Source: a virus. From it: DNA of 42,827 bases. Below, piece after piece: positions 1-42,827 of this stretch. Where the stretch lies: the UHGV virus genome UHGV-0011110. One strand, given 5' to 3'. The stretch's first letter is position 1, and every line of letters starts with the position of its first letter. The notes under the pieces are model-generated. The model was not told where the DNA came from, searched no databases, and saw only the letters and a program-made list of their open reading frames with translations. The position numbers and the translations under genes are program-made.

Positions 1-135
1 GAGCCAGAAGTTAAAGAGCCAGAAGTTAAAGAGCCAGAAGTTAAAGAGCCAGAAGTTAAAGAGCCAGAAGTTAAAGAATCAGAAGTTAAAGAATCAGAAG
101 TTAAAGAATCAGAAGTTAAAGAATCAGAAGTTAAA
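1..135 (+). repeat. 15-bp tandem repeat array inside capsid gene: 5x GAGCCAGAAGTTAAA (EPEVK) then 4x GAATCAGAAGTTAAA (ESEVK)
   Basis: Exact unit repetition read directly; same unit x3 at 42783..42827. Confidence 0.9.
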
Positions 136-1119
136 GAAGAAAAACGCTCATTAGAGCCAAAAGGAGAAGAAAACAATATGGAAAAAGTAGTATTAGACGG
201 AAAAGAAATCGCTCAACCAGAAACAGAAGTTCGTGGATTTTTAAATTATGTTCGTTCACACAACTCTAAAATGGACTTACGTGCATTACCAGAAGGTGTC
301 AAATCAAGTGATGTAGGTGCTATTATCCCAGAGGATATTGTTACAAAAACAAAAATGTTACCTGAAACAGTGGTTGACTTACGTAACTTGGTTCAAACAG
401 TGAAAGTAAGCACTCCAACAGGTAAATACCCTATCTTGAAATCAACAGAAGCTGTAATGCATACTGTAGCAGAACTTGAAGCAAATCCAGACTTAGACAA
501 GCCACAATTTGAAAATGTATTGTATGATGTAGATACTTATCGTGGACAAATTCCAGTGTCTCGTGAATCTTTAGATGATTCTGATGAAGATTTGGGAGCA
601 TTAATTGCACGCCATATTCAACGCATTACGTTAAATACTGCTAATGCTAAAATTGTGGAGAACTTTAAAACTGCTGGAGCAGCAACGGTTAAAAATCTTG
701 ATGAAATTAAAACAATCATCAATACTCAATTTGACCCAGCGTATAACTTACAATTTGTAGTTTCTCAATCATTCTACAATGAAGTAGATTTAATGAAAGA
801 CAATGAAGGACGTTACATGTTACAACCTTCAATCACAGCGCAATCAGGCAAATCTTTACTTGGTTTAAACGTGACTGTATTGTCTGACAAGTTACTAGCT
901 GGAGAGGCTGAAAACAAAAAAGTAGCCTTCTTGGGAGACCCTGCAGGGTTTACATCATTCTTTGACCGTAATGAAATTGCAGTGCGTTGGCAAGAACATC
1001 AACATTATGGAGAAATTCTAGCAGCAGCTATGCGTTTTGACGTCAAATCAGTAGACGTAGATGCAGGTAAATTCTTAACTCTTGATACATCAGCACCAGT
1101 TGAAGTTCCAGGAGCATAA
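1..1119 (+). CDS. major capsid protein, HK97-fold; 3' 373 codons of a gene whose 5' end is at 42675..42827 (circular junction)
   Basis: Frame 1 is open from nt 1 (no stop) and is in frame with the ORF that runs off the 3' end of the window. Follows portal and prohead protease; RALPEG-containing HK97-like capsid core. N-terminal delta/scaffold-like coiled coil carries the EPEVK/ESEVK repeats. Confidence 0.8.
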   Translation, partial: EPEVKEPEVKEPEVKEPEVKEPEVKESEVKESEVKESEVKESEVKEEKRSLEPKGEENNMEKVVLDGKEIAQPETEVRGFLNYVRSHNSKMDLRALPEGVKSSDVGAIIPEDIVTKTKMLPETVVDLRNLVQTVKVSTPTGKYPILKSTEAVMHTVAELEANPDLDKPQFENVLYDVDTYRGQIPVSRESLDDSDEDLGALIARHIQRITLNTANAKIVENFKTAGAATVKNLDEIKTIINTQFDPAYNLQFVVSQSFYNEVDLMKDNEGRYMLQPSITAQSGKSLLGLNVTVLSDKLLAGEAENKKVAFLGDPAGFTSFFDRNEIAVRWQEHQHYGEILAAAMRFDVKSVDVDAGKFLTLDTSAPVEVPGA

Positions 1120-1189
1120 TATAAACATTTATTAAGAGAGGTGGGGCTCATGTCTCATCTCTCTTTTATTATAATAGAAGGACGTGATT

Positions 1190-1465
1190 ATGTCAATGAT
1201 TACAGTAGAAGAAATTAAAAATAATTTGCGCATTGACTACGAGGAAGATAATAACTACCTGGAAATGTTACTGGAAGCCGCTAAATTATATATTTTAGGT
1301 AGTATTGAAGTCCTAGAGTTACCAGACACACCACAAACAAACACGTTGATATTCATGCTGGTATCATTATGGTATGAAAATAGAGTTCCAGCAACAAATG
1401 CAATGCAACAACAAGTACCGTTTACAATTACAGCTATGATTCATCAACTGAGAGGTGTGGTATAA
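1190..1465 (+). CDS. gp6-like head-tail connector protein
   Basis: MSMITVEEIKNNLRIDYEEDNNYLEMLLEAAKLYI matches the Phage_gp6 connector N-terminus. ATG at 1190 sits 7 nt after AAGGA; the track start at 1184 is a GTG too close to the SD. Confidence 0.65.
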   Translation: MSMITVEEIKNNLRIDYEEDNNYLEMLLEAAKLYILGSIEVLELPDTPQTNTLIFMLVSLWYENRVPATNAMQQQVPFTITAMIHQLRGVV

Positions 1466-2575: not shown

Positions 2576-2623
2576 CCCACTAATGCCAAAAATATGATAT
2601 ACTGTATATAGAGGAGTGATGTG

Positions 2624-3181
2624 ATGTATACAGTATATTTACATGTCAATAAAATTAATGGTAAAAAGTATTTTGGACAAACTTGTCAAAAAGTTTCTGA
2701 TAGATGGGGTAACGGTTCAACATATTCAAACTCAATACATTTATATAGAGCAATCAAGAAATATGGATGGGATAATTTTAACCATTTTATTATAGCAGAT
2801 AAACTAAATAAAGACGATGCTGACTCATTAGAAATAAAACTAATTCAAGCGTATGATACTATACGAACAGGATATAATATTTGTCATGGCGGAGTAGGAG
2901 TTATGATAGGTAGAAGACATACTGTAGAAACAAAGCAAAAAATACGTGAATACAGAAAAAAACAAGTTTTCTCAAAAGAAATTCAGAAAATAAAAGCAGA
3001 GACAATGTTGGGTTTTAAATACAAACATATTGAAGTCACATTTCATGATGGTAATACACGTAACTACCAACTAATATCAGACATTTCTAACGAGCTTGGT
3101 TTTGATAAAGGACATATTAATAAATGTCTAAACGGAAAAAGAAAATCTCATAATAAATGTAAATTTAACTATGTATATTAG
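2624..3181 (+). CDS. free-standing GIY-YIG homing endonuclease
   Basis: VYLHVN..KKYFGQT (GIY..YIG), conserved R and YNIxHGG motif; C-terminal basic DNA-binding tail. GAGGAG 7 nt before ATG 2624. Confidence 0.8.
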   Translation: MYTVYLHVNKINGKKYFGQTCQKVSDRWGNGSTYSNSIHLYRAIKKYGWDNFNHFIIADKLNKDDADSLEIKLIQAYDTIRTGYNICHGGVGVMIGRRHTVETKQKIREYRKKQVFSKEIQKIKAETMLGFKYKHIEVTFHDGNTRNYQLISDISNELGFDKGHINKCLNGKRKSHNKCKFNYVY

Positions 3182-9092: not shown

Positions 9093-12000
9093 ATGGCAGA
9101 AAAGTATGAGTTTTTAAGAACATTTACCTTTGATGGTAATGAAACAAAGCACTTGTTTCAAATAGCTAAAGTTAATATACCTTTTTTATCAAAAGACAAT
9201 GAGTATTACACAGTAGGAAATACAGACGGCAAGCATTTTCGTAGCACACGTCTTGGAGATTACTCACTATCTATTGATGGTTTCGTCATAAAAGACAACA
9301 CTGGTAAGTCTGTCAGTGACTCATTAGATGAACTAAAGGTTTTGTTAAATTCAGACGAACCTAAACAGTTGATATTTGATGTTTTCCCAGATAGATATTT
9401 CAGCGCAATCTTTAGTGGGGTACAAGAGTATGATGCAACTAATTTGGACTATACACCGCTTACATTAGTGTTTGACGTACCAGATGGGTTGGCACATTCT
9501 ATAGAACCAATTGGATTCTCAAATACCTACTCAAACACAACAAATCTGATGCTTGACAGTGAGTATAATGCTACGTATAAATATATGAAGCCTTGGGTAG
9601 AGAAGTTGGATGAGAAGTTTAATAACTCTAATGTAGTGCAAGGCGACTTCAGAACTGGTATTCCATTGAACTTTGAGCGTGATGACAAAACAGATGAGCG
9701 ATGGCTAAACTGGAATCCAGCTACAACGATTCATACTGCTGATTTGAAAAAAGGAGATGAAGTCAACTTCAGTGTATATGCACAAGTAGTATTCATTGAT
9801 GAAGAGAATAACAAAGATTACGCTGGACAAGTCATTCTAGAAGAGTGGGACACAGTGAAGGGAGCAATACTCAAGCGACACATTGTCTATATCCCTAAAC
9901 AAGTAACCACTCAGTTCACTGAATATGGGTCAGTGGTTAAAATTGAAAACGAAAAAACAAATGCTATTAATCTGCAGTATGGTTTCAGAGGAAGTAATCT
10001 CATTAAATGGAGTAAGCCAATGATTAGCTTTCTACCACCACTTGGGGAAATAGTAACAGCCCCAAGCGTGGGTGCTAAAGCTTATAGTAACAGTTTAGAA
10101 TTTGGGGACTATGATTATAGTGGTAATCCGAATCTAATGAGTGTAATTAAAGCCTCTGATTTTAAAACAGAGGTTGATAGTAATGTTCAAATCTCTGATG
10201 TTGATTATAACAGTATACGTTTAGCATCTCAAGGAACTGAACTAACGCCTTTTGCCGCATATACACCTGGTAGTGTATCAAGTTTAGTTAGTGGTAAAAC
10301 TTATACTATAAGCGCAAAAGTTAAAATAGAGGAAGGCACAACTGGCAACATTGATAAACTAAGAATAGCTTATCGTAAAACTCTTGGTGGAACTATTTTG
10401 CTATCTGCTAACACTACAGGTGTAGAAGTGGGTAAAGAAATAATCATCAAAGGTACAGGAGTCGTTAATTATAACATTACAGATTTAAGCAGATTTTATT
10501 TATCTATTGGTACGGAAGCAGGCTCTAAAATGAACGGTAGTGTGATTGTCAGTGATATTAAGATTGAAGAAGGCTCAACAACCACACCATATCAACCTAA
10601 CTTACTTGATGCTCCATATTATTTGAGTAAGGTGCCTTTGGGAGAAAATCTTATTAAGCCAGAGTCACAACAACCAGTTACTAATAGCAACTATCTTATT
10701 AAAACCTATAACACCAAACCCATGATAAAAGGTAAGAAATATACCATCACACTTGAAGGAACTAAGCCAGCAACACAGGTTTTTAGAGCATTCTTTACAC
10801 AAGCAATAGGAAATTCATGGTCATCTGGTGATTTGAAGCCAGTAGAAGGGTTAGCGAATACCTGGTCTGTAACATTTACAGCAGCGGCAGATTCACATCC
10901 TACTAAACCAGAGGCGATGATTTATCAAGTACCAAACACAAGCTTAGGACAATGTACAATTAAGTGGTTAAAACTAGAGGAAGGCGACACCCGCACCCCA
11001 AACATCCCATACTACAAATATGAAGGAATCGCACCAGCACCATCAAATAATCCAAAAGATTATCATTGGGGTTATAGTCCTTCATATATCAACGCGGTCG
11101 AATATGTACCAAGTGGTGATTCAATTGATGACTTAATCAAGATTGAAAACAACGGAACCTACAAAGCATATCCACAGATTAACTTCACAATGAATGGAGA
11201 AAACGGACTTGTAGCAGTATTAAATGAAAATGGAAATGTGTTGCAGTTTGGGAATCCAGAAGATGTTGACGGAACTGTAGCTACACGTTTAGACATGGGA
11301 CTTAAAGAAAACTTTTGGGGTAACAAATTACCAACTAACATTACAATTAACTCTGGTTTTGATTCAGTTGTACCTAATTTTAACAATAATCCAGCCACAC
11401 CTAACTTGTTTGATGGTGGATTTGATATGACTACGTATGTAGATGCAATTAGACCAACTTTCTCACAAGTCACAAAAGAAGTGTGGCATGGTCCTAGCAT
11501 GCTCTTACCTATCACAGCACCTACAAACAACGATAGAACTGGTAGTTTTGGAGTACACACACGTTTTTATTTTAGAAATATCAACAAGGGAGAACGTGGA
11601 CGATTAGAGTTTGCAGTAAATGATGAGACTGGCGCTAATGCAATGACTTTCATTGTACGTGATAGCTCAATCACAAATACTGAAATTGTGTTAGAAATGT
11701 GGTACAAGAAAAAGAAATTAAATCAAGTCAGTCTTGATAGAAAAGTATTTAAGAAAGATTTCTTTGAGATTAATATGGAACGTACTGGCAAGCAACTAAC
11801 ATGGCGCTTTGTTCAAATCAACAGCTTAAATAAATATGATAATGTAATTGTGGATAAACAATACAAATTCACATGGAATTTGGAATCAGATGACGCAACT
11901 AAATTCACATCCACTGGTGTGTGGTTCATGAGATATGGCAACACACCTCATAATCCAATGTACGTGACAGACACGCAAGTTAAATGGTACAATACTCCAT

Positions 12001-12227
12001 TCTTTAACAACGTTAAAAACATTTTTCAAGATGGAGATAATGTCACTATAGATGTGGAAGAACGTGCAATTTACATTAATGGGGCAATTAATAATGAGCT
12101 AAATGTCGTTGGTAATGAATGGGAACAATTTAGACTTGGGTTAGGCACTACAATCATTCAACCAGTTGTATCCAGTTGGGCGCATCCAGCTAACGTTAAC
12201 GTAACATTCAGACAGTCATATTTATAG
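9093..12227 (+). CDS. distal tail protein (Dit) with long C-terminal carbohydrate-binding-like extensions ('evolved Dit')
   Basis: Position right after the tape measure; Dit-like N-terminal ~250 aa; 1044 aa total. Confidence 0.6.
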   Translation: MAEKYEFLRTFTFDGNETKHLFQIAKVNIPFLSKDNEYYTVGNTDGKHFRSTRLGDYSLSIDGFVIKDNTGKSVSDSLDELKVLLNSDEPKQLIFDVFPDRYFSAIFSGVQEYDATNLDYTPLTLVFDVPDGLAHSIEPIGFSNTYSNTTNLMLDSEYNATYKYMKPWVEKLDEKFNNSNVVQGDFRTGIPLNFERDDKTDERWLNWNPATTIHTADLKKGDEVNFSVYAQVVFIDEENNKDYAGQVILEEWDTVKGAILKRHIVYIPKQVTTQFTEYGSVVKIENEKTNAINLQYGFRGSNLIKWSKPMISFLPPLGEIVTAPSVGAKAYSNSLEFGDYDYSGNPNLMSVIKASDFKTEVDSNVQISDVDYNSIRLASQGTELTPFAAYTPGSVSSLVSGKTYTISAKVKIEEGTTGNIDKLRIAYRKTLGGTILLSANTTGVEVGKEIIIKGTGVVNYNITDLSRFYLSIGTEAGSKMNGSVIVSDIKIEEGSTTTPYQPNLLDAPYYLSKVPLGENLIKPESQQPVTNSNYLIKTYNTKPMIKGKKYTITLEGTKPATQVFRAFFTQAIGNSWSSGDLKPVEGLANTWSVTFTAAADSHPTKPEAMIYQVPNTSLGQCTIKWLKLEEGDTRTPNIPYYKYEGIAPAPSNNPKDYHWGYSPSYINAVEYVPSGDSIDDLIKIENNGTYKAYPQINFTMNGENGLVAVLNENGNVLQFGNPEDVDGTVATRLDMGLKENFWGNKLPTNITINSGFDSVVPNFNNNPATPNLFDGGFDMTTYVDAIRPTFSQVTKEVWHGPSMLLPITAPTNNDRTGSFGVHTRFYFRNINKGERGRLEFAVNDETGANAMTFIVRDSSITNTEIVLEMWYKKKKLNQVSLDRKVFKKDFFEINMERTGKQLTWRFVQINSLNKYDNVIVDKQYKFTWNLESDDATKFTSTGVWFMRYGNTPHNPMYVTDTQVKWYNTPFFNNVKNIFQDGDNVTIDVEERAIYINGAINNELNVVGNEWEQFRLGLGTTIIQPVVSSWAHPANVNVTFRQSYL

Positions 12228-16450: not shown

Positions 16451-16483
16451 GAACCCTCAAATGAGGGTTCTTTATTTGTTTTT
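16451..16483. terminator. bidirectional rho-independent terminator between convergent endolysin and dNK genes
   Basis: GAACCCTCA/TGAGGGTTC perfect stem followed by a T-run. Confidence 0.75.
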
Positions 16484-16550
16484 AAATGGATAATCACCTT
16501 AATTCAATTATTTAAAGTGCTTAGAATGCTCGTGAGAGACACGCTTTTTG
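16480..16550. repeat. R2: second copy of the ~70-bp direct repeat; overlaps the genuine dNK 3' end
   Basis: See R1. Confidence 0.85.
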
Positions 16551-17216
16551 AGAGAAATAGGTGTATTCTTCACCACTAATTGCTCCCACATTGAACAATT
16601 CATCTAGTATCATTATTAGTACTTTCATGCGATGTTCTGGGTTATTAACATAGTCAAGTTCTGTTACATCTATGATTAACTTAGGAAAGCCTAAATCTTT
16701 ATTCATCCACTCTTGATAGTTAGCATGATGGTTTCTAAAGTATTCATATAATTCAGTACCTTTTTCAACTTTCTCAAAATCTCGTGCGCGGTTATTAATA
16801 CGTTTAATCTCTTCTTCAAAGCTACAATTTAAAACAATCATCAAATCAGGTGATTTCTTTGGTAGTGGTTCTAGTTCTTTCAACATGCGATTTAATAGTT
16901 TTGTATAGACCTCCAATTCTAACTCGTTCACAGAGCCTTCATCATATAACTGCTTTAAAAAGATTGAATCTTCATATATTGAACGATCAAGAATGCCATT
17001 TTTAACACTCATAGCCTCCTGAATAAGTTCAAAGCGCTTGGACAACATGTCAATTTGAAATAGAAAACCATACGTTTTCTTGTCTGCATAGAATTTCTCC
17101 AGTAGAGGATTATCCTCTACTGGTTCATAAACTGCTTTCGTTTCTAGTAATTCGCTTAATAAATGTGTCATTGATGATTTACCTACCCCAATTGGTCCTG
17201 CCAATGTAATCAACAC
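16521..17216 (-). CDS. deoxynucleoside kinase (dAK/dGK/dCK family)
   Basis: P-loop GPIGVGKSS, VYEPVEDNPLLEKFY, LDRSIYEDSIF (DRS motif). Confidence 0.85.
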   Translation of the reverse strand: MLITLAGPIGVGKSSMTHLLSELLETKAVYEPVEDNPLLEKFYADKKTYGFLFQIDMLSKRFELIQEAMSVKNGILDRSIYEDSIFLKQLYDEGSVNELELEVYTKLLNRMLKELEPLPKKSPDLMIVLNCSFEEEIKRINNRARDFEKVEKGTELYEYFRNHHANYQEWMNKDLGFPKLIIDVTELDYVNNPEHRMKVLIMILDELFNVGAISGEEYTYFSQKACLSRAF

Positions 17217-17228
17217 TAATCTTCCTCC

Positions 17229-17450
17229 CTACTTAAATTCTTCCCATTTGTTTGGTGCAAATCCCATGCTTACAAACTCATCATCTTTAAACACTACAGG
17301 TAGTGTTCTTAGGTTCATAGTAAGCAACTCATTTAACCCATCTAAGTTGTCATCCACATTAACCTCAGTGAATGTGTGTCCTTTTCCTTTAAACCAGTTC
17401 TTGGTCATTTTGCAAGGCATACAGTTGTTTTTAGTATAAATTTTAATCAT
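17229..17450 (-). CDS. nrdH: NrdH-like glutaredoxin
   Basis: MIKIYTKNNCMPCKMTK...LPVVF; CxxC redoxin of NrdH length. GGAGGA 8 nt upstream of ATG 17450. The track's N-terminal MLYLIHKLRGG extension is translated promoter/leader. Confidence 0.7.
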   Translation of the reverse strand: MIKIYTKNNCMPCKMTKNWFKGKGHTFTEVNVDDNLDGLNELLTMNLRTLPVVFKDDEFVSMGFAPNKWEEFK

Positions 17451-17479
17451 TTTTTTTCCTCCTCTTAACTTATGAATTA

Positions 17480-17508
17480 AGTATAACACCTCCGTTACGA
17501 GGTGTCAA
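17480..17508 (-). promoter_or_regulatory. early promoter: TTGACA-17-TGtTATACT plus conserved leader
   Basis: Perfect -35, 17-bp spacer, extended -10. Leader TAATTCATAAGTTAAGAGGAGG shared with the other copies. Confidence 0.7.
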
Positions 17509-17978
17509 GTGTTTATATTTAATATTCTGAATCTTTTATTCTCACCACCCAGTTTATTTAGATTATTAAAGTATGCTGTATTTAGATTGAAAAACTGTGT
17601 CGCTTCAACGAGTGATTTAAATTCATATTCTTTATTCGTTGATTTATCAATCATAGTAATTGTAACTCTATGGTACTCCTTATTAATTGACTGCTCTAAT
17701 GTCGTAGCCCATCTTAAATTTTCAACACTATTGTCTATTCTATTACGATTAATATGATCAACAGTGGGTTTGTTATATGGATTAGCTATAAAAGCTTCTG
17801 CTACTAGACGGTGGACTTTCATGTTTTGATTTTTACTTCCGATGTGTACCATATGGTATCCGTAGGCATCCATACGATTTTTTAATGTCCTATGACGAGT
17901 AATGTTTCGTACCATACCTAGTGTTGATATGTTGTATTTATCACCATATGAATTAGTATACGGTAATATTTTAGTCAA
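17505..17978 (-). CDS. NUMOD4/HNH_3 homing endonuclease overlapping the polymerase 3' end
   Basis: HRLVAEAFI.NP.NKP.VDHINRNR.DN...NLRW.T motif. N-terminus aligns with the other HNH genes from TTG 17978, 3 nt before the polB stop. Confidence 0.65.
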   Translation of the reverse strand: MTKILPYTNSYGDKYNISTLGMVRNITRHRTLKNRMDAYGYHMVHIGSKNQNMKVHRLVAEAFIANPYNKPTVDHINRNRIDNSVENLRWATTLEQSINKEYHRVTITMIDKSTNKEYEFKSLVEATQFFNLNTAYFNNLNKLGGENKRFRILNINT

Positions 17979-20262
17979 TATAATTCTTGACTTCTGGGAA
18001 TGTATATCCAAGTTTTTTAAATTTACTATGAGCCTCCTCAAGTCTAACCCTCCATTCTGTACCTAGCCACAGGATCAGTAGATCTTCCACCTGATTGATA
18101 TAGTATTCTTTATCAATATCATCTAAAGTAATCCAACCTTCACCAATTGCCTCATTATCAATGGCATAATATTCAGGAGCATTAGCTAAACCTTTAGTAT
18201 ACGAATCATTACCAACGATAGTTGTACCTTCCTCTTCAATAACAGCTCCACGTTTTACTTTGAATATTTCAACCGCTTTTTTAGGGTCTTTTACTGCAAA
18301 CACACGATTTACTTTTTGTGCTTTCGTTTCATTACCATTCATATCACGTACTACAGTATCATCAAATGTGTATCCTGTCTTAGTAACCATTTGGAATTGG
18401 CGTAGTTCATCACACTCATTTATAAACTCTCTATAGTCTTTACCAGCAACTACATAATTAATGAACGCATTTGAAACAATTGCTTTAGAAACTTTCAATC
18501 CATTCGTTAGACCAATAGCACCTTTAAACTTCACGTTACCATTTGCTGTAACTGCCAAGTAATTATTTACGTCCTTCTGGAAAATAGCTTTAAATGGATC
18601 ATCATCTAAGGTGTACCCTGTCCGTTTCATCCAATCATTTGCAATCTCATCAATGGCTTTTTCATCTTCTTCACTAAATGGAATATAGTAGTGCGCGTCT
18701 GTGTTTGATTGAATAATAGTAGCATGGTCTTCAATCTTTTCTAGTAAATCCCACATTGCCATCTGCCCAGTAATACATACTAATAACCTCATACGTGGGT
18801 CATACAGTTTATTAAACTCAGCTCCCATTGCACCATATTTAGTGTTTAGAGGTAGTTTATAGCCATTAATCAATAACTTAGTTGGAATCTGAACACCTTT
18901 AATTTCAGTAAATTCTTTTTTAGAATACTTGGCTTCCATACGTTCATCTAATAACATTTGATAGATATGACGTTTGTCTTCTGGGATGTTTCTTGACAAG
19001 TAGTCAAATAGCACCATGGTATTAGGGTAAAGTGAGCCTACGTCACGTGCATGGAAGTTACCTACATGAATAAATGATTCCTTAGCTCCATGTATACCAC
19101 CTACCCCTAAAACCTCTGTCACGTCTCTACGTGGCACATCTAATGAAATACTGGCATGTCCTTTATCATTAGCTTCAAATTCATCTGTCATAAATGCCTC
19201 ACGTATGGTCTCTGACTCAATTTCAAACCCTTCTGGTAGTTCATACTTATCTAACTCGTCACCTCTATCAGGTGTCTTCTCAGCTCCTAATAATTCAGCA
19301 GTCAAGTTTGCGTTAGTCATTGACAGTGCCATTTTGTCTAAACCAAAGTATAAGGCAATCGCTGCCTTAGCTACTAACATGCCTATGTTTTGTTCAAAAC
19401 GTTTTTCAGTAGCTAATACATCATTTTTACAGTATAGTTCATTCAGTAATTGCTCTTCTTCTGTTAATTCTCTATCTAAATCAAAGTCTACCTCAGTTTC
19501 TTTAATGTTGATGCCTAAGAATGCACTATGCTCTTTCAAGCTGAATCCTCTATTGTCTTGATATAAATCCATTCCAAACAGTGGTGTTTTCTTAGTATCA
19601 AACATTTTATATACTAACGCTCTGTCATCACTTTCAATGATTGCTTTTGACACATGAAATGGGTTTTTGCCTTGTAAATAAGCACGCATGACATTTGAGT
19701 CATATGAATGTGAGTTATAACCTACAAACAACGAATCTCTATTCGCTAGATAGAACTTGCGTAAAGCGTCCAAATCATTATGAATGACTGTCCATTCTTT
19801 GGTGAAGTAATCTCTGAAAACAAATAAATTGTCTTTTTTAAATACTTCAATGTCATAAATATATATTGTTTGTTTTGTTAGTGCCTCATTCGGTTTCTCA
19901 GGCAATACGTCAATTACTGCTCCTCTTTGATTAATAGTTACATTTGGGAAACCATTGCTGTATTTTAGAGTAATCATCAACTGCTGTCCAACTTCTATCT
20001 TTTCCCACGTTTTCCAATCTTGCTTACGAAATTTCATAATATAAAATGTAGCGTCACGTCCATCATTTGTGCTACGTACTTTAATTTCTTTCATCTCTTT
20101 GCCTTTAGCAGATAAACGTTCCTCAGCTTTAATCACTACAACTTGATGAATCCCTTCAATCATTGGGTCAAAGCTCTTTCCGTTGCCTGCTAATGCAGAA
20201 AATATTTCTAATAGTTTAGATGCTAACTTTTCAGCACCTTGAAATTCTGCTATGTTTTTCAT
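17971..20262 (-). CDS. family B DNA polymerase with 3'-5' exonuclease
   Basis: Exo I DIE, Exo III YCKNDVLAT, motif A DVGSLYPNTM, motif B KLPLNTKYG, motif C-like SNTDA. Confidence 0.85.
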   Translation of the reverse strand: MKNIAEFQGAEKLASKLLEIFSALAGNGKSFDPMIEGIHQVVVIKAEERLSAKGKEMKEIKVRSTNDGRDATFYIMKFRKQDWKTWEKIEVGQQLMITLKYSNGFPNVTINQRGAVIDVLPEKPNEALTKQTIYIYDIEVFKKDNLFVFRDYFTKEWTVIHNDLDALRKFYLANRDSLFVGYNSHSYDSNVMRAYLQGKNPFHVSKAIIESDDRALVYKMFDTKKTPLFGMDLYQDNRGFSLKEHSAFLGINIKETEVDFDLDRELTEEEQLLNELYCKNDVLATEKRFEQNIGMLVAKAAIALYFGLDKMALSMTNANLTAELLGAEKTPDRGDELDKYELPEGFEIESETIREAFMTDEFEANDKGHASISLDVPRRDVTEVLGVGGIHGAKESFIHVGNFHARDVGSLYPNTMVLFDYLSRNIPEDKRHIYQMLLDERMEAKYSKKEFTEIKGVQIPTKLLINGYKLPLNTKYGAMGAEFNKLYDPRMRLLVCITGQMAMWDLLEKIEDHATIIQSNTDAHYYIPFSEEDEKAIDEIANDWMKRTGYTLDDDPFKAIFQKDVNNYLAVTANGNVKFKGAIGLTNGLKVSKAIVSNAFINYVVAGKDYREFINECDELRQFQMVTKTGYTFDDTVVRDMNGNETKAQKVNRVFAVKDPKKAVEIFKVKRGAVIEEEGTTIVGNDSYTKGLANAPEYYAIDNEAIGEGWITLDDIDKEYYINQVEDLLILWLGTEWRVRLEEAHSKFKKLGYTFPEVKNYID

Positions 20263-24290: not shown

Positions 24291-24764
24291 TTATACTAAT
24301 TTATTTCTATCTGCGTATGACGCTCCTTCAAGTTCCCAGAGTTCTCTACCAAGCTTATTAGCGGTAAGATAATCCTTTTTATCGCAAGCATTATTAATCT
24401 TAATAATAAGCTCATGTCGTTTAGGTTCAACACGTTTGCGTGCAGGGCGTGAAACACGTTCTTGTGATTCTTTTGGATTGATTGCATACCCAAGGTTAGT
24501 CCAGTGATTGTTTTGCACGTTACCATCCTTATAATACACATAGCTGCAATTATGTGGGTTGTATACAAACATTTCAGCAACCAGTGGGGCTATATAAAAC
24601 TTACGTGACTTTCTATGTGATCCATTTAGTACTACAAATTGTTTACCTGTCTTGTAGTCAATCTCTTCTGTTACATATTTACCTGAGTCAATATCCATAA
24701 CATGTCCTTCATTTGTAATAGAGTACTTATCATATGGTGGTGAAAGTTGTTCAAATTTAAGCAT
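24291..24764 (-). CDS. NUMOD4-containing HNH-like protein (degenerate HNH; first His replaced)
   Basis: N-terminal YxIxNxGxV pattern; APLVAEMFV.NP..., NNHWTNL. Confidence 0.45.
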   Translation of the reverse strand: MLKFEQLSPPYDKYSITNEGHVMDIDSGKYVTEEIDYKTGKQFVVLNGSHRKSRKFYIAPLVAEMFVYNPHNCSYVYYKDGNVQNNHWTNLGYAINPKESQERVSRPARKRVEPKRHELIIKINNACDKKDYLTANKLGRELWELEGASYADRNKLV

Positions 24765-25542: not shown

Positions 25543-26052
25543 TTAGTCCTCCTTATATTTAAAAGTATATCCTCCAACATGGTTACGTCTACCTTTAAGT
25601 AATTCACAAATTCCACCTGTTGATAATCCTAACAATCGTCCTGCTTCAGATAGACTACTATACGTATTGCCATTTGAACATATTATAGGTTTACTACGTG
25701 ACGTTTTACTTCTTTTAATACCTGTACCATGTTGTATATTATCAATATGTGATACCCATTCCAAATTGTTTATAGAATTATTAGCTTTGTTTTCATCAAT
25801 ATGGTTAACATCACTTAAATTTAGTTCATTATTTATGAAGTGTTTTGCCACTAATCGATGAACCCTGTAACATTTTCTTCCTCTTGAATTAACAACATTA
25901 ATATAATAATATCCACTAGTTTTATTCTTAAATGGTTTTAAAAGTCTATTTGTTTTAATATTTTTTATCCTACCTAAACTGCTCACTTGATAATTTGGGA
26001 AATCCTTAATCGTCCGCCATTCTTCGCAACTCGCGTTTTCTAACTGATTCAT
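25543..26052 (-). CDS. NUMOD4/HNH_3 homing endonuclease
   Basis: HRLVAKHFI.N......VNHIDENKANNSINNLEWVS. Confidence 0.75.
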   Translation of the reverse strand: MNQLENASCEEWRTIKDFPNYQVSSLGRIKNIKTNRLLKPFKNKTSGYYYINVVNSRGRKCYRVHRLVAKHFINNELNLSDVNHIDENKANNSINNLEWVSHIDNIQHGTGIKRSKTSRSKPIICSNGNTYSSLSEAGRLLGLSTGGICELLKGRRNHVGGYTFKYKED

Positions 26053-27004: not shown

Positions 27005-28301
27005 CACTTTCAATCATTTCATTTGTAAAGTCTTTTCCATTTGTAACTGTGTTAAAGATCTTTTTCTCAATTGGTGTATCTGGGACAATATGATAATACA
27101 GTGGCGTTTTCTCTTGTCCATGTCTATCAGTGCGCCCCTTTGCTTGTAAATACTCTGTAGAGCTTAAAGGCATTGAATTGAATACTGTCACATTACTAAT
27201 CACAAAATCGTTTATACCTGTTGAGGCTGACTTATATTGGGCTAGGACTACCCCATTTTCATTTTGTTTGAATGGTCTCAAATCTTTAACAGCACCATTG
27301 TACGTACCATATGGACGTTTCAGTTTGTCTAATAGTCTACCCAACATTAGTCCTTCCCACTTGTAGTTATAGAAGATTACTACACGCTCATTGTTATGTG
27401 TCTCAAGAATAGCTTCTAAGCGTTCAAAGGGTTCTTTGGATACTTGTTTATTGATTCCATATAGAAAACCATGACTAACTTGTCTTAATGAGTTAAAAAG
27501 TTTAGAACTGTTATCCAATTCAATCGTTTCTGGATTAAATGGCGCTGTTTCTGCTTCATAAATTCTATTCTTTTTCAGCTTGTTGTACATTGCTGGCTTC
27601 TTAGTTTTATAAACGTAATCTTGTGGTAAATAGCCTTTGTCACGCTTGTAGTTCACACTTGCTTCATTTATCATTTGCTGTAACAGGTGCTCATTCTGAT
27701 AGCCCACAATATCCATAAAACGCATTGACCCCATCTGTCTCAGTTGTTTTATCACAAATAGTTGTTCAAACTCTTTCTTAGGCTTTCTAAAGACATTTGC
27801 AATGTATAGTTGTGAATACCAATTCTCCAGTTTTCCATTGCTCACAGGGGTAGCTGTGCATAAATACGTATGTTTTGCTCTCTTAGATAGCTGCATAACA
27901 AACTTAGTTACTTTAGACTTGGATACACCAACTTTGTGAGATTCATCAATAATAATAAACGTGTCTTTGTCTACCCATTTCAATAACTCAGTCAAGCGCC
28001 ATGAGCTTTCAAAACTGATTGCAACATTCTCTGCTGTTTCTAACAGCTCTTTGTTTTTCTTTGTGCCTTTGTTGAGCGCTGTAATGTCAATATCAAACAC
28101 ATGTCCATCTTCCACAAAGTCTAACACTTTAGGTGCTAGACAGATCACTAATAACTTATTACACTTACTTTTCACATATGAACCAATACTCATGTAAGAT
28201 TTTCCAGTTCCAACGTCTGATAGGTTTAAAGGTTTAGTCTCAAAGTTTTCAATGGCTTCTTTCTGATACATGAAAAGTTCTATATTATTCTGCATATTCA
28301 A
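26988..28301 (-). CDS. SF2 helicase (SNF2/DEAD-like)
   Basis: Walker A DVGTGKS, DESH box, motif VI QAKGRTDRHGQ. Confidence 0.8.
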   Translation of the reverse strand: MNMQNNIELFMYQKEAIENFETKPLNLSDVGTGKSYMSIGSYVKSKCNKLLVICLAPKVLDFVEDGHVFDIDITALNKGTKKNKELLETAENVAISFESSWRLTELLKWVDKDTFIIIDESHKVGVSKSKVTKFVMQLSKRAKHTYLCTATPVSNGKLENWYSQLYIANVFRKPKKEFEQLFVIKQLRQMGSMRFMDIVGYQNEHLLQQMINEASVNYKRDKGYLPQDYVYKTKKPAMYNKLKKNRIYEAETAPFNPETIELDNSSKLFNSLRQVSHGFLYGINKQVSKEPFERLEAILETHNNERVVIFYNYKWEGLMLGRLLDKLKRPYGTYNGAVKDLRPFKQNENGVVLAQYKSASTGINDFVISNVTVFNSMPLSSTEYLQAKGRTDRHGQEKTPLYYHIVPDTPIEKKIFNTVTNGKDFTNEMIESVDKYS

Positions 28302-28755
28302 AAATCAATCCTTTTATAGTTTTTCTTCTCTTTGTTAGAACAGAAGATATTGATTGAGGTATTAAATTTAAATCTTTTGCTGCGCTTTTTACACTGTCAT
28401 AGTGTTTACCTGTATTTTTACATATAATTCTCTTTGAATATGACAACCCCCTAGTTCCATAATTGATGTTATATTCATTGGTACACCATTCTAAGTTTTC
28501 AACAATATTATTTCTTTTGTTTTCATCAATATGATTGACTTGTGCGTAATTGTTTGGGTTATCAATAAAAGTTGTAGCTACTATTCTATGCACTAATGTT
28601 TTTGTTACATTTCCATTTTTACACAGACTTACCGCCTCATATCCTCTACCTACAATATTGTGTTTCAATATTCTTCCGTTTCTCATAACTCTTCCTAAGT
28701 TACTCACTTGATATAATCCTTCATAATCTTTAATATCTTTCCAAATTTCTTTCAT
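28285..28755 (-). CDS. NUMOD4/HNH_3 homing endonuclease
   Basis: MKEIWKDIKDYEGLYQVSNLGRV; HRIVATTFI.NP...VNHIDENKRNN.ENLEW. Confidence 0.75.
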   Translation of the reverse strand: MKEIWKDIKDYEGLYQVSNLGRVMRNGRILKHNIVGRGYEAVSLCKNGNVTKTLVHRIVATTFIDNPNNYAQVNHIDENKRNNIVENLEWCTNEYNINYGTRGLSYSKRIICKNTGKHYDSVKSAAKDLNLIPQSISSVLTKRRKTIKGLIFEYAE

Positions 28756-35300: not shown

Positions 35301-35329
35301 GTATAGCACGTTTAGAGACCATGGTCAAC
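35301..35329 (-). promoter_or_regulatory. early promoter TTGACC-17-TGcTATACT plus conserved leader
   Basis: Read directly. Confidence 0.7.
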
Positions 35330-35394
35330 TGTTTTATTTAAAAATGTCACTAATTTTCCTGTTTTGTCACTATATGACATAGAATTGACGTTTT

Positions 35395-35685
35395 TAAAAT
35401 CGCTGTAACCCTTGATACTCTAAGGAATAGACCAGTTTAGTGACAAAATGACAAAAAAAGCGCCATACTCTTTATATATATATATATATATATACTACAT
35501 AACCATGTAATAATTATATTTATTATTTAATATATAAAATATTTTGTCATTTTGTCACTATAAAAATAAGAATGTAGATATACCAAGGGCTACAGCGATT
35601 TTAGGTGTCAAAATTAGTGACAAAATGGTGACAAAAATAAGCTAGTTTGTGACAAAATGACACTTTTAGGCTGACTTTTTGTCAC
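35395..35685. repeat. nested inverted repeats and iteron-like array with a central (TA)10
   Basis: Outer inverted repeat at 35395..35411 and 35587..35602; inner perfect inverted repeat at 35440..35456 and 35540..35556. (TA)10 at 35473..35492. About 10 GTGACAAAAT-type sites in both orientations at 35345, 35361, 35440, 35450, 35540, 35549, 35606, 35617, 35628, 35649 and 35676. Confidence 0.85.
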
Positions 35686-35730
35686 AAATTGGTTTACTTG
35701 ATACTTCAACACACAATCCCTTATCTATGA

Positions 35731-37049: not shown

Positions 37050-37187
37050 ATCAACAAACACGCAGACAAAATTATTTTTAGGGAGACCCAAAATATTTTT
37101 ACCCCCCTACCTTTTTTGTCCAGCCTAATCGCTGATGACTCTTCTTCACACGAATTTCTAAAAATGAACTTTCAAAAACGCCCTTTT

Positions 37188-37320
37188 CCCCTCATAAACG
37201 TGATTAAAACCTGGTTTCTTGTGTTGAAAATAAAGAAATAACACTATATATTGTATGTTATTTCTCTTATACGATTCCTCCCCCTATAAACATGATTGAA
37301 CCATGGTTTCTTTACACAGG
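37188..37320. repeat. two ~38-bp direct repeats (37188..37226 and 37281..37320), each containing an AACC(N)GGTT palindrome
   Basis: CCCCTcATAAACgTGATTaAAaCCTGGTTTCTT versus CCCCTATAAACaTGATTgAACCATGGTTTCTT. Confidence 0.8.
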
Positions 37321-37398
37321 ATTCTTTTTATATGATATAATAAATTATATAAGGGATTTTTGTTTAACTCAACAAACTAAAGTAAGGGAGGTAGAACA

Positions 37399-37584
37399 AT
37401 GCCAGCTCCGAAGGCTGTTTATGTAAAAGATTTGTCAACTGGGAAAACACGCAAATTTAAATCACAATTTGCAGCAGATGACTTCTATGGACTCAAGAGA
37501 GGCTATATGAAGGATCTGAAAACCAAGCTTGGTGGTCGTAATAAAAAATTTGAAATTACGGAAGTACCAAAAGAAGAATTATAA
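37399..37584 (+). CDS. hypothetical basic protein
   Basis: AAGGGAGG 7 nt before ATG. Confidence 0.45.
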   Translation: MPAPKAVYVKDLSTGKTRKFKSQFAADDFYGLKRGYMKDLKTKLGGRNKKFEITEVPKEEL

Positions 37585-37647
37585 ATTTTAGTTGACAACC
37601 TCCTTTATTTGTGCTATTATATTAGTATAAAGAAGGAGGAATTATTT

Positions 37648-38154
37648 ATGAAAGAAATTTGGAAAGAATTAGACGATTTACCAAACTATGAAATCAGTAA
37701 CATGGGTAGGTTGAGAAATAAAAATACATTGAGAATTTTAAAAACAAGAATTTCAAAACTTGGCTATGAGCAAATAACAATCACGTATGGCGGCGAAAAA
37801 TATTTCAGAACAATACACAGGCTTGTAGCTAAAGCATTCTTAATTAACCCAAATAACAAACCTGAGGTTAATCACATTGACGAAAATAAACTTAATAACC
37901 GTGTTAGCAATTTAGAGTGGGTGACTAGAAAAGAAAATTTAAATCACGGCACTTGGAAGCTTAAAAAGAGACAATCGCGAGATAAGGCCATTTATGCTTA
38001 CAAAGACGGTGAAGTACTTGAGTTCCCTTCAACTAAAAGTTGCGCTCAAACACTTGGGTTGATTCCAACAAATGTTACTCAAGCTATTCGTGTAAAGAAT
38101 AAAAACGGAAGTAGTAAAACACTAAAAGGCTACACATTCAAATACAAGGAGTGA
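37648..38154 (+). CDS. NUMOD4/HNH_3 homing endonuclease
   Basis: MKEIWKELDDLPNYEISNMGRL; HRLVAKAFLINPNNKPEVNHIDENKLNN..NLEWVT. Confidence 0.75.
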   Translation: MKEIWKELDDLPNYEISNMGRLRNKNTLRILKTRISKLGYEQITITYGGEKYFRTIHRLVAKAFLINPNNKPEVNHIDENKLNNRVSNLEWVTRKENLNHGTWKLKKRQSRDKAIYAYKDGEVLEFPSTKSCAQTLGLIPTNVTQAIRVKNKNGSSKTLKGYTFKYKE

Positions 38155-38160
38155 AAATAA

Positions 38161-38625
38161 ATGGCAAGACCACGAAAATTATTAAACGCTCAGAGTGGTA
38201 ACTTGACCACTCAGCAACGAGAAGAGCGTGAGAAAGAGGAGGAAGTACTTTACAACTACGAAAAGTTAGACTTTAGTTTTTATCCACCAGGTTTATTACC
38301 ACAAGCATTTAATGAATGGGATCGCATTGGAGCCTATGTAGGAGATTTACCTATCTCTGAATTAGATGTGAATACAGTCATTAGATATTGTAACTACAAT
38401 TATTTATACGCTGAAGCAGTAGAGAAAGTGGCACAGATGGGTGCTATTAACCCTGAGACAGGTAAAGCAAACCCATGGGTTAATGCCATGAACTCCTATT
38501 CAAAAGAGCTTAAAACGGCAACCAATGACCTTGGGTTAACAATCAACTCAAGAATGAAGATTATTCTTCCAGCAGAGAAAGAAAAAGAAGTACTTGACCC
38601 ATTCGCAAAAATGTTTGAGGGATAA
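38161..38625 (+). CDS. terS: terminase small subunit, P27 family
   Basis: Size, position and P27-family pattern (..LDPFAKMF.. C-terminus). Confidence 0.65.
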   Translation: MARPRKLLNAQSGNLTTQQREEREKEEEVLYNYEKLDFSFYPPGLLPQAFNEWDRIGAYVGDLPISELDVNTVIRYCNYNYLYAEAVEKVAQMGAINPETGKANPWVNAMNSYSKELKTATNDLGLTINSRMKIILPAEKEKEVLDPFAKMFEG

Positions 38626-38878: not shown

Positions 38879-40654
38879 ATGACGGATTATGTAGCTGATT
38901 ATATCAATCTAATTGAAACAGGTTGGATTGAAGGACGTAAATATATAGTAGAAGATGACTATTACAAACCTATTAAAGTTAAAATCAAAGTGGGTAAAAA
39001 AATACAGAAAGCAATTGAACGACACCAGAAGGATATAGAGCGCTCAAAAGACCCCAAGTATCCATATGTGTATAGACCAGAGGAAGCTATAGCACCAGTT
39101 AGATTTCTTGAAATGCTACCTGACCCTAAATCACGAAAAACAACAAAGCTAGCACACTTCCAGAAATTTATTGTTGGACTATTATATGGATGGCGTAAAA
39201 AGAAAGATAATACTAGACGTTTTAGAAAAGCATATATCTCACTAGCACGTAAGAACGGTAAATCACTACTAGTATCAGGAATCGCATTATATGAGTTTTT
39301 ATTTGGTAAGAACCCAGCAGCTAGTCGTCAAGTAGTAGCCGCAGCAAATACTAAGGAGCAGGCAGGTATTGTGTTTAGAATGCTTAAGTCTCAGCTAACC
39401 GCACTACGTAGCGTTTCAAAAGAAGTTAAGAAACGAACAACTGTGCGTAGATATGATATTGAAGCTAGTGACGAGTCAACCGTAAAGCCACTATCAAGTG
39501 ATGCTGACACACTAGACGGACTAGATGTGTTATGTGGTATTTTAGATGAATATGGTGAAGCTAAAGATGATGCAATTATCCAAGTATTAGAATCATCACA
39601 ATCGCAACAATTAGAGGGATTAATATTAATAATTTCAACAACTACTAAAAATCTAAATGGGCCTATGCACTCTGTAGAGTATCCATTTGTTGAAAAACTA
39701 CTTGATGAAGAGGTTAAAGGTGATGCCTATCTTGCGTTATGTTGGGAAATGGACTCACTGAGTGAAGTAGATGATGAAGAAAACTGGATTAAATCAAACC
39801 CATTGTTTGAAATACCAGAAGCGTATGACTCAATGATGGAACATAAGCGCAACTCACTTGATGAATACAAAGGTAAAATGGACTTATCAGGTTGGCTAAC
39901 AAAAGAAATGAATTTTTGGGTACAATCATCTAAAGATAGTTTTGTAACCAAAGAAGAGTGGGATGCAGTTAAAGCACCAAAGAAATACGATATTAAAGGA
40001 CGTAAAGTATATATTGGCTTAGATATTGCCAGAACCTCAGACATGACTGCAGTATCATGGATTATTCCAATTGAGGAAGAACACAAATTACTGCTGGACA
40101 CACATGGTTTTGTGTCATCAGTAGGAGGTATTGATCACAAACAGTCAATTGATAAAATACCTTATAGACAATATGAGTCAATGAACCTCATTCATATTTC
40201 ACAGCGTGAAGATGGCTTAATTGACACAGAAGAAATGTGTGATTGGATACGTGATTTTATAGACTATAACGAGTTACAGTTGATAGGTATTTACTATGAC
40301 CCATTCATGATGGATAAGGCGTTAATTAATTTAAGTAAAACATATCCTAAAAAACTAATTGAAGTACCTCAGAAAATTAACTATTTATCCTCACCAACTA
40401 GAGCTTTGAGGGAACTCATTCGCAGAGATGAAGTTATCCACACAAATAACCCTCTTTTGAATCGTGCAGCCTATAATGCCATGATTAAAGAGTATAACGA
40501 CAGTGTGGCAATAGATAAAGGTATGAACAGAAACAAAATCGATGCTCTTGATGCTGTGATAAATGCCATGAGTGATGCACAATACCATGATTTTGATGCA
40601 CCAACCTTGCAAGATTTACTAGATAATGGAGAGTTTGGCTTTGGGTATGCTTAA
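38879..40654 (+). CDS. terL: terminase large subunit
   Basis: Walker A-like ISLARKNGKS, nuclease-domain acidic residues; size and position. Confidence 0.8.
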   Translation: MTDYVADYINLIETGWIEGRKYIVEDDYYKPIKVKIKVGKKIQKAIERHQKDIERSKDPKYPYVYRPEEAIAPVRFLEMLPDPKSRKTTKLAHFQKFIVGLLYGWRKKKDNTRRFRKAYISLARKNGKSLLVSGIALYEFLFGKNPAASRQVVAAANTKEQAGIVFRMLKSQLTALRSVSKEVKKRTTVRRYDIEASDESTVKPLSSDADTLDGLDVLCGILDEYGEAKDDAIIQVLESSQSQQLEGLILIISTTTKNLNGPMHSVEYPFVEKLLDEEVKGDAYLALCWEMDSLSEVDDEENWIKSNPLFEIPEAYDSMMEHKRNSLDEYKGKMDLSGWLTKEMNFWVQSSKDSFVTKEEWDAVKAPKKYDIKGRKVYIGLDIARTSDMTAVSWIIPIEEEHKLLLDTHGFVSSVGGIDHKQSIDKIPYRQYESMNLIHISQREDGLIDTEEMCDWIRDFIDYNELQLIGIYYDPFMMDKALINLSKTYPKKLIEVPQKINYLSSPTRALRELIRRDEVIHTNNPLLNRAAYNAMIKEYNDSVAIDKGMNRNKIDALDAVINAMSDAQYHDFDAPTLQDLLDNGEFGFGYA

Positions 40655-42103: not shown

Positions 42104-42605
42104 GGATAATGTAGTAGAGGGGTACGCTTTAAAGTTTAACAAAGAATCACGTGATTTAGGTGGATTTGTTGAAACAATTTCACCAGATGCACTAGATGGG
42201 GTAGATTTAACAGATGTACGTTGTTTCTTAAACCATGACTCTACAAAACTATTGGGGCGTACGTCAAGTGGTACCTTGGAGTTAAATGTTGACGATATTG
42301 GACTACATTTCAGATGTACACTACCTAACACAAGTACTGGTCGTGATGCGATGGAGTTAGTAAAACGTGGCGATTTAAACCAGTGCTCGTTTGGTTTCAC
42401 AGTAGCAAATCACAAATGGACAAAAGATAATGGAATTATGAAACGCTCAATTAATAAAATAAAATCTTTATTAGAGATTTCATTAGTATCAATCCCAGCA
42501 TATGATGATACAGACGTTCGTGTTGCTACACGTTCATTAGAAGAGGCAGTAAACGAATTAGAAAAAGAGAAATTAGAGATTGAATTGGAGTTGTTGGGCT
42601 TGTGA
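42054..42605 (+). CDS. prohead protease (HK97 / peptidase U35-S78 family)
   Basis: VEGYALKFN..S.DLGGF.E.I.P.A pattern; overlaps the portal 3' end; precedes the capsid gene. Confidence 0.7.
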   Translation: MTKNMEIRALQTLEKSEDNVVEGYALKFNKESRDLGGFVETISPDALDGVDLTDVRCFLNHDSTKLLGRTSSGTLELNVDDIGLHFRCTLPNTSTGRDAMELVKRGDLNQCSFGFTVANHKWTKDNGIMKRSINKIKSLLEISLVSIPAYDDTDVRVATRSLEEAVNELEKEKLEIELELLGL

Positions 42606-42641: not shown

Positions 42642-42674
42642 TAAAACAGAAAGCTAGTGAAGGAGTGAGATTAC

Positions 42675-42827
42675 TTGAATCGTGAAGAACAGATTAAAAA
42701 AGCACAAGACTTATTATCAGATGGTAAATTTGAAGAAGCTCGCAGTTTAGTTGAAGCTATTAAGAAACATGATGCTGAACAAGAGCCAGAAGTTAAAGAG
42801 CCAGAAGTTAAAGAGCCAGAAGTTAAA
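42675..42827 (+). CDS. major capsid protein, 5' part (TTG start, delta-domain coiled coil, first 3 EPEVK units); continues at nt 1
   Basis: GGAGTGAG RBS 6 nt before TTG. The ORF runs off the window end exactly in frame (51 codons) and matches the frame open from nt 1. Confidence 0.75.
   Translation, partial: MNREEQIKKAQDLLSDGKFEEARSLVEAIKKHDAEQEPEVKEPEVKEPEVK
42783..42827 (+). repeat. 3 x GAGCCAGAAGTTAAA tandem units (EPEVK)
   Basis: Identical to the units at 1..75. Confidence 0.9.

Follow-up and report, generated by a model that had tools for sequence, protein, structure and literature searches.

A genome record that begins and ends inside the same short tandem repeat raises the questions of whether its two ends belong together, whether the repeat is real and, if it is, what the repeated peptide does in the protein that carries it. 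The stretch of viral DNA analysed here (UHGV-0011110, 42,827 nt, taken at its full length and called the window below) opens and closes within a 15-bp array in a gene predicted to encode a major capsid protein. We think it probable that the window is a complete, cos-packaging phage genome that the assembler broke inside an array encoding a linker of variable length, part of a delta domain that would be discarded after assembly.

The capsid gene across the ends of the window

The array and the gene that contains it comprise the following parts.

42675-42827, plus strand: 5' part of the capsid gene; TTG start, codons 1-36 (42675-42782), then three EPEVK units
42783-42827, plus strand: three perfect copies of GAGCCAGAAGTTAAA (EPEVK), the first units of the array
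1-75, plus strand: five perfect copies of GAGCCAGAAGTTAAA (EPEVK), of which the first 45 nt duplicate the final 45 nt of the window
76-135, plus strand: four perfect copies of GAATCAGAAGTTAAA (ESEVK), a block of variant units on the 3' side of the array
136-1119, plus strand: remainder of the capsid gene; EEKRSLEPKGEENN motif (136-177), weak helix, N-arm and HK97-fold core, with the stop codon at 1117-1119

That the window starts and finishes in a 15-bp array of the capsid gene, as the preliminary description had stated, was confirmed by direct read-out of the repeats and by TRF, which reports 9.1 copies of period 15 at 1-137 (98% matches, score 218) and 3.1 copies of the same period at 42781-42827 (100% matches). 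The open reading frame was also said to leave the 3' end through three EPEVK units in frame with the first nucleotide, and this is what we find: from the TTG at 42675, which follows an AAGGAG ribosome-binding site (42660-42665) lying 9 nt before it, the frame takes up exactly 51 codons to the end of the window and carries on at nt 1 to the stop at 1117-1119. The joined product has 423 aa and consists of residues 1-36, eight EPEVK and four ESEVK units (residues 37-96) and then EEKRSLEPKGEENNMEKVV, with M111 corresponding to an internal ATG at window position 178. The EEKRSLEPKGEENN motif downstream of the array is conserved, and the array region holds a single open reading frame.

A perfect sigma-70 consensus (TTGACA-17-TATAAT) occurs once in the window, at 1168-1196 on the minus strand, against 0.04 expected by chance; it is antisense, placed between the end of the capsid gene and the start of the connector gene, and is directed into the capsid gene. 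It is kept at the same position in vB_EhiS_268, Bp29, DELF1 and four metagenomic relatives, and a 14-bp terminator-like hairpin (1134-1165) adjoins it; together the two could form an arrangement for an antisense RNA or a bidirectional terminator.

A complete genome with a candidate cos site

The genes around the capsid gene are listed in their order across the junction.

38161-38625, plus strand: terminase small subunit (TerS), by Pfam
38879-40654, plus strand: terminase large subunit (TerL), by Pfam
40904-42103, plus strand: portal protein (PF04860, 172 bits)
42054-42605, plus strand: prohead serine protease (Peptidase_S78), by Pfam, 69 nt upstream of the capsid start
1184-1465, plus strand: gp6-like head-tail connector (PF05135), the first gene after the capsid gene
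1465-1800: head-completion protein, by Pfam
1779-2213: gp10-like protein, by Pfam

The canonical order of portal, protease, capsid and connector that had been read across the junction is thus borne out by the Pfam assignments (PF04860, S78, PF05065, gp6-like), and no gene for a scaffolding protein separates the protease from the capsid. The other large open reading frames encode tail proteins, an amidase, a prim-pol, a helicase, a D5-type primase, a deoxynucleoside kinase and several homing endonucleases.

The first 6 kb of the window match 87 Enterococcus phage records, the best of which (vB_EhiS_268, Bp29 and vB_EfaS-DELF1) are about 90% identical. In all three of these the capsid gene is uninterrupted and internal to the record, with the same N-terminus, EPEVK array and core. 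When the whole window was compared by BLAST with the complete vB_EhiS_268 and Bp29 records it proved collinear round the full circle, and position 1 of the linear vB_EhiS_268 record fell at about window position 35546, far from the capsid gene. No recombinase or integrase domain was detected in any tested open reading frame of at least 140 aa in the window, a tRNA scan of the window returned none, host flanks are absent and the records of the relatives carry no annotated integrase. Collinearity with the genomes of lytic phages, taken with the absence of integrase, tRNA and host flank, identifies the window as the complete genome of a virulent Enterococcus siphovirus. An integrated prophage or a temperate phage was considered and rejected on the same grounds, in agreement with the initial reading of the window as a complete phage. 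The two ends are also contiguous, as had been proposed, given that the gene is intact in the relatives and that a scaffold built with paired-end information spans the array (see below). Roughly 76% of the window can be aligned to vB_EhiS_268 or Bp29, and the share of its bases that match theirs is only about 65%, so the phage would, by sequence, be a new species at or near the boundary of the genus Delfunavirus (DELF1, Bp29, vB_EhiS_268; genus names from PMC12590732).

The ends of the packaged DNA probably lie elsewhere. [quoted passage not shown] The IME-EFm1 record starts at the cos cut, and the opening 439 nt of it match window 37139-37577 with 83% identity; it was solely by this alignment of the record start that the following site was located.

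37130-37138, minus strand: candidate cos site, with a 9-nt overhang TCATCAGCG on the minus strand (CGCTGATGA on the plus strand), by homology to IME-EF4 and IME-EFm1

Around it the minus strand reads GAAATTCGTGTGAAGAAGAG-TCATCAGCG-ATTAGGCTGG, which shares 34/49 and 36/49 identities with the two mapped junctions, and the 9-mer differs by one base from that of IME-EF4 (TCATCACCG). A direct search of the window for the IME-EFm1 cos 49-mer, allowing up to 3 mismatches, gave no match, and a search for its 9-mer gave matches at chance level only. The candidate site lies upstream of terS, as in IME-EF4 and IME-EFm1, and about 5.7 kb from the ends of the window; it differs in that a NUMOD4/HNH homing-endonuclease gene (37609-38154) stands between cos and terS in the window. 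This homology makes it most likely that the virion DNA is linear with cohesive ends and not permuted, and the packaged molecule probably ends at 37130-37138. Headful (pac) packaging would leave no fixed ends and a redundant terminus; the sole terminal redundancy in the window is the 45 nt of tandem array. The suggestion of a circularly closed or permuted genome holds for the assembly but probably not for the virion.

Several further segments set the window apart from its relatives or stand out within it.

2621-3181, 17505-18041, 24291-24764, 25543-26052, 28285-28755 and 37609-38154: homing-endonuclease genes
9093-12227: distal tail protein (Dit), 1044 aa, with an inserted carbohydrate-binding module (PF21869)
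16521-17216, minus strand: deoxynucleoside kinase (PF01712, 135 bits), inside 16453-17970, a segment unaligned to vB_EhiS_268 or Bp29
35320-35690: divergent intergenic region between minus-strand early and plus-strand late genes, holding a (TA)11 tract

There are at least five and probably six homing endonucleases: one GIY-YIG/I-HmuI-like, four with NUMOD4 and HNH_3 and one lacking a Pfam match, whose position matches that of a vB_EhiS_268 gene annotated 'HNH homing endonuclease-like'. The one at 37578-38146 stands in a segment that the vB_EhiS_268 and Bp29 alignments lack, and insertions of this kind probably contribute to the size difference of about 2 kb between the genomes. The Dit counterpart in vB_EhiS_268 has 688 aa, and window 9616-11148 is unmatched in vB_EhiS_268 or Bp29; this is a probable host-range determinant. 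On the two sides of the (TA)11 tract stand four copies of GTGACAAAATGACA, with both orientations represented (5 hits, where 0.73 would be expected), and the region that holds the tract is probably an operator/promoter or origin region. The ends of the linear vB_EhiS_268 record, which fall in this region, are likely another assembly breakpoint.

The array as a point of assembly failure

How many units the array holds depends on how the two ends are joined. A literal join gives 8+4 = 12 units and a join in which the overlap is collapsed gives 5+4 = 9. With the first and last 45 nt identical, the sequence fits both counts, so the earlier caution that closing the circle inside the repeat might have inflated the 8+4 count was well placed. 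The array in this phage has at least 9 units, and 12 on the literal reading.

Independent assemblies show why the record ends where it does. The ENA scaffold MERR22-1_SAMEA4765843-S001_METAG-scaffold_677 (42,994 bp) has 0 mismatches to the window in 3,774 nt at an offset of 7 nt; it reaches 23 nt further into the EPEVK block, continues with 100 N and 51 nt of ESEVK units and ends there. This gap indicates that paired-end information bridges the array, though the assembler could not traverse it. Run ERR7745914 yields a Logan contig that is identical to the window along 5,692 nt, with its first base at window position 109, within the ESEVK block. Both ENA sample SAMEA4765843, through scaffold_677, and run ERR7745914 contain a phage identical to this one. 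Scaffolds of related phages (SAMEA7428239 scaffold_110 and SAMN17578203 scaffold_750) likewise have gaps of 100 N exactly at the array, which makes three ENA scaffolds with such gaps (677, 110 and 750). The ends of the window are assembly breakpoints and not DNA ends: the short-read assembler would have been unable to cross the perfect 15-bp array and would have opened a circular assembly graph inside it. The array had been named as the likeliest site of assembly collapse, and the contigs that stop there and the N-filled scaffolds demonstrate as much.

Could the array, or most of it, itself be an artefact of assembly, the true gene having few or no repeats? The terminal 45-nt identity and the gaps in the three scaffolds are what such an artefact might leave behind, but reading inward from unique sequence gives at least five identical EPEVK units on the left side and 5+4 units on the right, and isolate genomes together with an independent SPAdes contig hold 6, 7 and 11 units internally. 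We regard an artefact as very improbable. The array is real, and doubt is confined to its exact number of units.

In the ENA and Logan assemblies examined the array is a reproducible point of short-read failure, and for this reason unit counts from such assemblies are not to be trusted. It is also a pitfall for annotation. Wherever the array is broken or gapped, gene callers choose the internal ATG at window position 178; because of their 100-N gaps, scaffold_110 and scaffold_750 have capsids called from it, of 312 aa and 311 aa. Two members of a public collection, P0122 and P0126, are shortened capsid calls of this kind that are without the scaffolding domain. The window's own truncated capsid products (313 aa and 372 aa) gave no exact match on record, and the parent contig was reached by way of the protease. 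A broken array thus leads to a capsid of 311-313 aa being reported with its scaffolding domain missing.

Variation in unit number among relatives

The preliminary description supposed that copy number is free to vary and proposed a comparison of relatives. Counts of 2, 4, 6, 7, 9 and 11 units were found in the cluster of capsids at 90% identity and in the proteins closest to it.

P0123: 2 units
P0003: 4 units
Bp29 and DELF1: 6 units each
vB_EhiS_268: 7 units
P0001: 9 units
P0124: 11 units (7 EPEVK and 4 EPEIK)

The counts from short reads (2, 4, 9 and 11) are possibly collapsed, and those from isolate genomes (6 and 7) are somewhat more trustworthy. An exact-pattern scan of IMG/VR for the 5' flank of the array gave no match.

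Two features of the units bear on how their number changes. First, the EPEVK codons are uniform within a genome and differ between genomes: all EPEVK units in the window start with GAG-CCA and every unit in every relative starts with GAA-CCA. Second, variant units stand in contiguous terminal blocks, namely ESEVK in the window, EPEIK in P0124 and DPEVK in Bp29; compared with vB_EhiS_268, Bp29 and DELF1, the ESEVK block is found in the window only. Homogenisation within a genome combined with duplication of blocks is the pattern expected of replication slippage or unequal recombination, and we infer that unit number changes through one or the other. Since the 15-nt unit equals five codons, all variants from 2 to 12 units remain in frame and the array offers no on/off switch. 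A phase-variable contingency locus was accordingly rejected, the unit length being divisible by three.

An N-terminal region outside the predicted capsid fold

Profile and structure comparisons indicate that the joined reading frame encodes a major capsid protein with the HK97 fold. Pfam PF05065 (Phage_capsid) matches residues 157-410 with 97.2 bits against a cut-off of 24.2. Foldseek aligns the AlphaFold2 model (103-sequence alignment, mean pLDDT 78) to HK97 1ohg_A with E = 6.9e-16 and a TM score (target) of 0.72 over about 290 columns of the 423 aa, and to many other HK97-fold capsids at E below 1e-12. In a phmmer search against PDB sequences one capsid only (30ys/30yt) was recovered; its alignment begins at residue 114 and is silent on the N-terminal region.

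The array lies in front of this fold. In the model, a helical hairpin (helices 3-15 and 19-36, pLDDT above 90) is followed from residue 37 to about 125, the array included, by coil with pLDDT 39-52 and no predicted secondary structure, then by a low-confidence helix at 126-137, putatively the helix associated with the P-domain, and from about residue 160 by a core with pLDDT above 83. Fold and profile matches start between residues 114 and 207, and about 130-150 N-terminal residues fall outside the fold; an N-terminal extension of at least 100 aa before the mature fold is thus present. The initial placement of the repeat in a delta- or scaffold-like N-terminal part is upheld in so far as Pfam, AlphaFold2, Foldseek and hhalign all leave it outside the HK97 fold.

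In HK97 the maturation cleavage falls between K103 and S104. An hhalign comparison of the family profile with HK97 gp5 aligned residues 207-391 to HK97 163-357 with a probability of 80%, and the near-invariant P161 in 'S.D....IP..I' presumably corresponds to HK97 P118 in 'SDADSAGSLIQP', a lead only. By the hhalign offset of about 44 residues, the equivalent of the HK97 site would lie near residues 145-153 ('GVK/SSD'), which we offer as a lead. The conserved KR/SLE (residues 99-103) may be an alternative or additional cut site. We had considered cleavage at R100/S101 ('KR/SLE', like 'K/SLG' in HK97) first; the hhalign result and the motif register favour residues 145-153 or so, and both sites are left standing. 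Whether the expected cut is near 145-153 or at 99-103, the array is N-terminal to it, and with the S78 protease gene immediately upstream the linker would most likely be removed with the rest of the N-terminal domain at maturation. Our literature search for processing of this capsid or of close relatives, proteomics included, found nothing, and nothing on point turned up on delta domains with tandem repeats or disordered linkers, on EPEVK or PEVK in phage capsids, or on Enterococcus phage capsids sequenced from the N-terminus.

The repeat might instead be retained on the mature capsid, inside the head or exposed, with a role in the virion. Such a reading has room, as both the removal of the segment in this capsid family and the exact cut site are deduced by analogy. 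It is nonetheless at odds with the protease gene 69 nt upstream, the lack of a separate scaffold gene and the 130-150 or so N-terminal residues outside the mature HK97 fold. An HK97-type T=7 head has roughly 415 subunits, and a segment of net charge -13 in that many copies inside the head would oppose the packaging of DNA. We judge retention to be highly unlikely.

A hypervariable linker of constrained composition

A search of 5.8 billion proteins returned 1,738 homologues at E <= 1e-10, of which the best 120 or so, about 80% or more identical, were compared. These share a common architecture of a conserved N-terminus, a variable linker and a conserved segment. Identity to the window averages 90% for the N-terminal 35-36 aa and 91% for the 40 aa, beginning KRSLE, that follow the linker (means over the best 123 of the 1,738). 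The linker between them measures 13-68 aa, with a median of 49, and takes 94 different forms in 122 proteins, again the best of the 1,738. E makes up about 38% of it, K 24%, and P and D 8% each; every member compared has one, the shortest being of 13 aa. In the linker of the window 57 of the 62 residues are P, E, V or K, and the net charge over those 62 residues is -13.

Perfect EPEVK repeats are found only in the subclade of vB_EhiS_268 and Bp29 within the best 120 of the 1,738. Other members have micro-repeats of their own with periods of 3, 4, 5, 6 and 11 aa, such as (EQK)4, (PEEQ)4, (DEEPK)3, (EPEKK)3 and (EDKKEPEVKEQ)3, which by their sequences appear to have arisen independently. Distant representatives (at most 50% identity, from an exhaustive search) have E/K-rich delta-type extensions of 60-130 aa, mostly proline-free in the most distant members; among these representatives, Pro/Glu-rich low-complexity stretches occur only in the branch nearest the window. 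The family pattern suggests that the EPEVK array is the latest expansion, and the most regular one, of a linker hypervariable in sequence and length whose composition is constrained.

The main rival to a selected linker is that it is neutral filler, a slippage-prone microsatellite that drifts in length with no selected length, charge or bulk. Much of what we describe would be expected in that case: the extreme variability (13-68 aa, 94 distinct sequences among 122), the recurrence of unrelated micro-repeats and the perfection of the repeats at the DNA level, which marks a very recent expansion. What it leaves unexplained is that no family member dispenses with the linker, the minimum being 13 aa, and that the E/K/P/D/Q composition is constrained everywhere, even in members that have no DNA repeat, which argues for selection on composition. 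We therefore consider neutral drift unlikely.

The same comparison bears on the idea that the array acts at the level of nucleic acid, as an iteron, packaging signal or RNA structure, the peptide being incidental. Its perfect 15-bp periodicity would suit such a role, but the array RNA is less structured than its shuffles (z = +1.5), the cos site is elsewhere (37130-37138), in most of the family the peptide composition persists although the DNA has no repeat, and the region has one open reading frame only. We find this scarcely credible. An Rfam search of the array gave no match, and a reading as an iteron or pac site was rejected on RNA folding, Rfam and the position of cos.

A possible role in procapsid assembly

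The scaffold domains of HK97 and D3 have been described as three elements: an N-terminal coiled coil, whose towers touch the portal; a short linker; and a helix-turn-strand region bound beneath the capsomer. [quoted passage not shown] The predicted parts of the present capsid could be mapped onto this layout, with the hairpin at residues 1-36 standing for the coiled-coil element, the array for the linker and residues 97 to about 150 for the capsomer-proximal region.

To return to the explanation that we prefer, the array would be a linker subdomain, in frame and of the form (E-P/S-E-V-K)n, of an N-terminal scaffolding (delta) domain. The order would be the helical hairpin (residues 1-36), the array (residues 37-96 on the literal join), the capsid-proximal segment (residues 97 to about 150) and the HK97 core. 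The peptide would be an acidic, proline-punctuated polyampholyte for which no structure is confidently predicted, and would most likely serve as a flexible tether and space-filler, holding the N-terminal helices, like the coiled-coil 'towers' of HK97 and D3, inside the procapsid; its action would depend on length, charge and bulk but on no particular sequence. Once the particle is assembled, the S78 protease would cut off the whole N-terminal region, leaving the repeat absent from mature virions. Slippage or unequal recombination between identical units would meanwhile alter the number of units and preserve the frame, and because the segment would be both discarded and insensitive to sequence, such variation would be tolerated. 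The cleavage, the role as tether or space-filler and the slippage are the deduced parts of this explanation.

A more far-reaching reading is that in this lineage of Enterococcus phages the short linker of the HK97 type has been replaced by a long, disordered polyampholyte that evolves in the manner of a microsatellite. Unit number would then be a tunable 'entropic spacer', setting the reach of the N-terminal helices into the procapsid or the crowding of its interior, and through slippage a population of phages would hold standing variation in capsid size or in how faithfully capsids assemble. The hypervariability could also come from diversifying selection to escape a host defence that recognises the capsid or scaffold protein as it is made. 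We hold these to be distinctly unlikely.

Comparison with known systems

The closest counterparts are the capsids of vB_EhiS_268 (CAD0299662.1), Bp29 (QYW06721.1) and DELF1 (BBQ04285.1), which are about 89-97% identical to that of the window outside the array and have an EPEVK array at the same position between the same protease and connector neighbours. They differ from it in having 7, 6 and 6 units, respectively, with GAA-CCA codons, against 9-12 units with GAG-CCA codons and an ESEVK block in the window. The same array thus already sits in three GenBank phages, and no paper that we found discusses it.

The PEVK region of titin has a repeat unit of roughly 28 aa. Both it and the linker of the window are dominated by P, E, V and K, and both would be expected to be unstructured and extensible, but there is no homology, the unit here has 5 aa and the contexts are unrelated, so the likeness is an analogy only.

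Among structurally characterised capsids, HK97 gp5 is alike in its fused N-terminal extension, its upstream protease gene, the lack of a separate scaffold gene and, to judge by the model, a three-part layout of N-terminal helices, linker and capsid-proximal segment. Its delta domain has 103 aa and is largely alpha-helical, with a coiled coil at residues 2-66 and a link of about 10 residues (66-76) (PMC10275583). In the window, by contrast, helix is predicted for about 34 aa only, and the place of the link is taken by a 60-aa repeat for which no structure is predicted; cleavage, moreover, is proven for HK97 and deduced here. Most of the delta domain of the window is without predicted helix, unlike that of HK97, so the scaffold analogy is partial. 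In Pseudomonas phage D3 the scaffold comprises a coiled coil, a short linker and a region associated with the P-domain, and its crowding was proposed to influence capsid size (PMC12749128). D3 differs from the window in its short, non-repetitive linker, its T=9 capsid and its long coiled coil, and there is no detectable relationship between the N-terminal sequences.

In summary, the family provides a natural series of delta-domain linkers of 13-68 aa between flanks that are about 90% conserved, and Bp29, DELF1 and vB_EhiS_268 are culturable isolates. How the length and charge of a scaffold linker affect the assembly of HK97-type procapsids is a question that the HK97 and D3 structures raise, and one that this series could be used to test.
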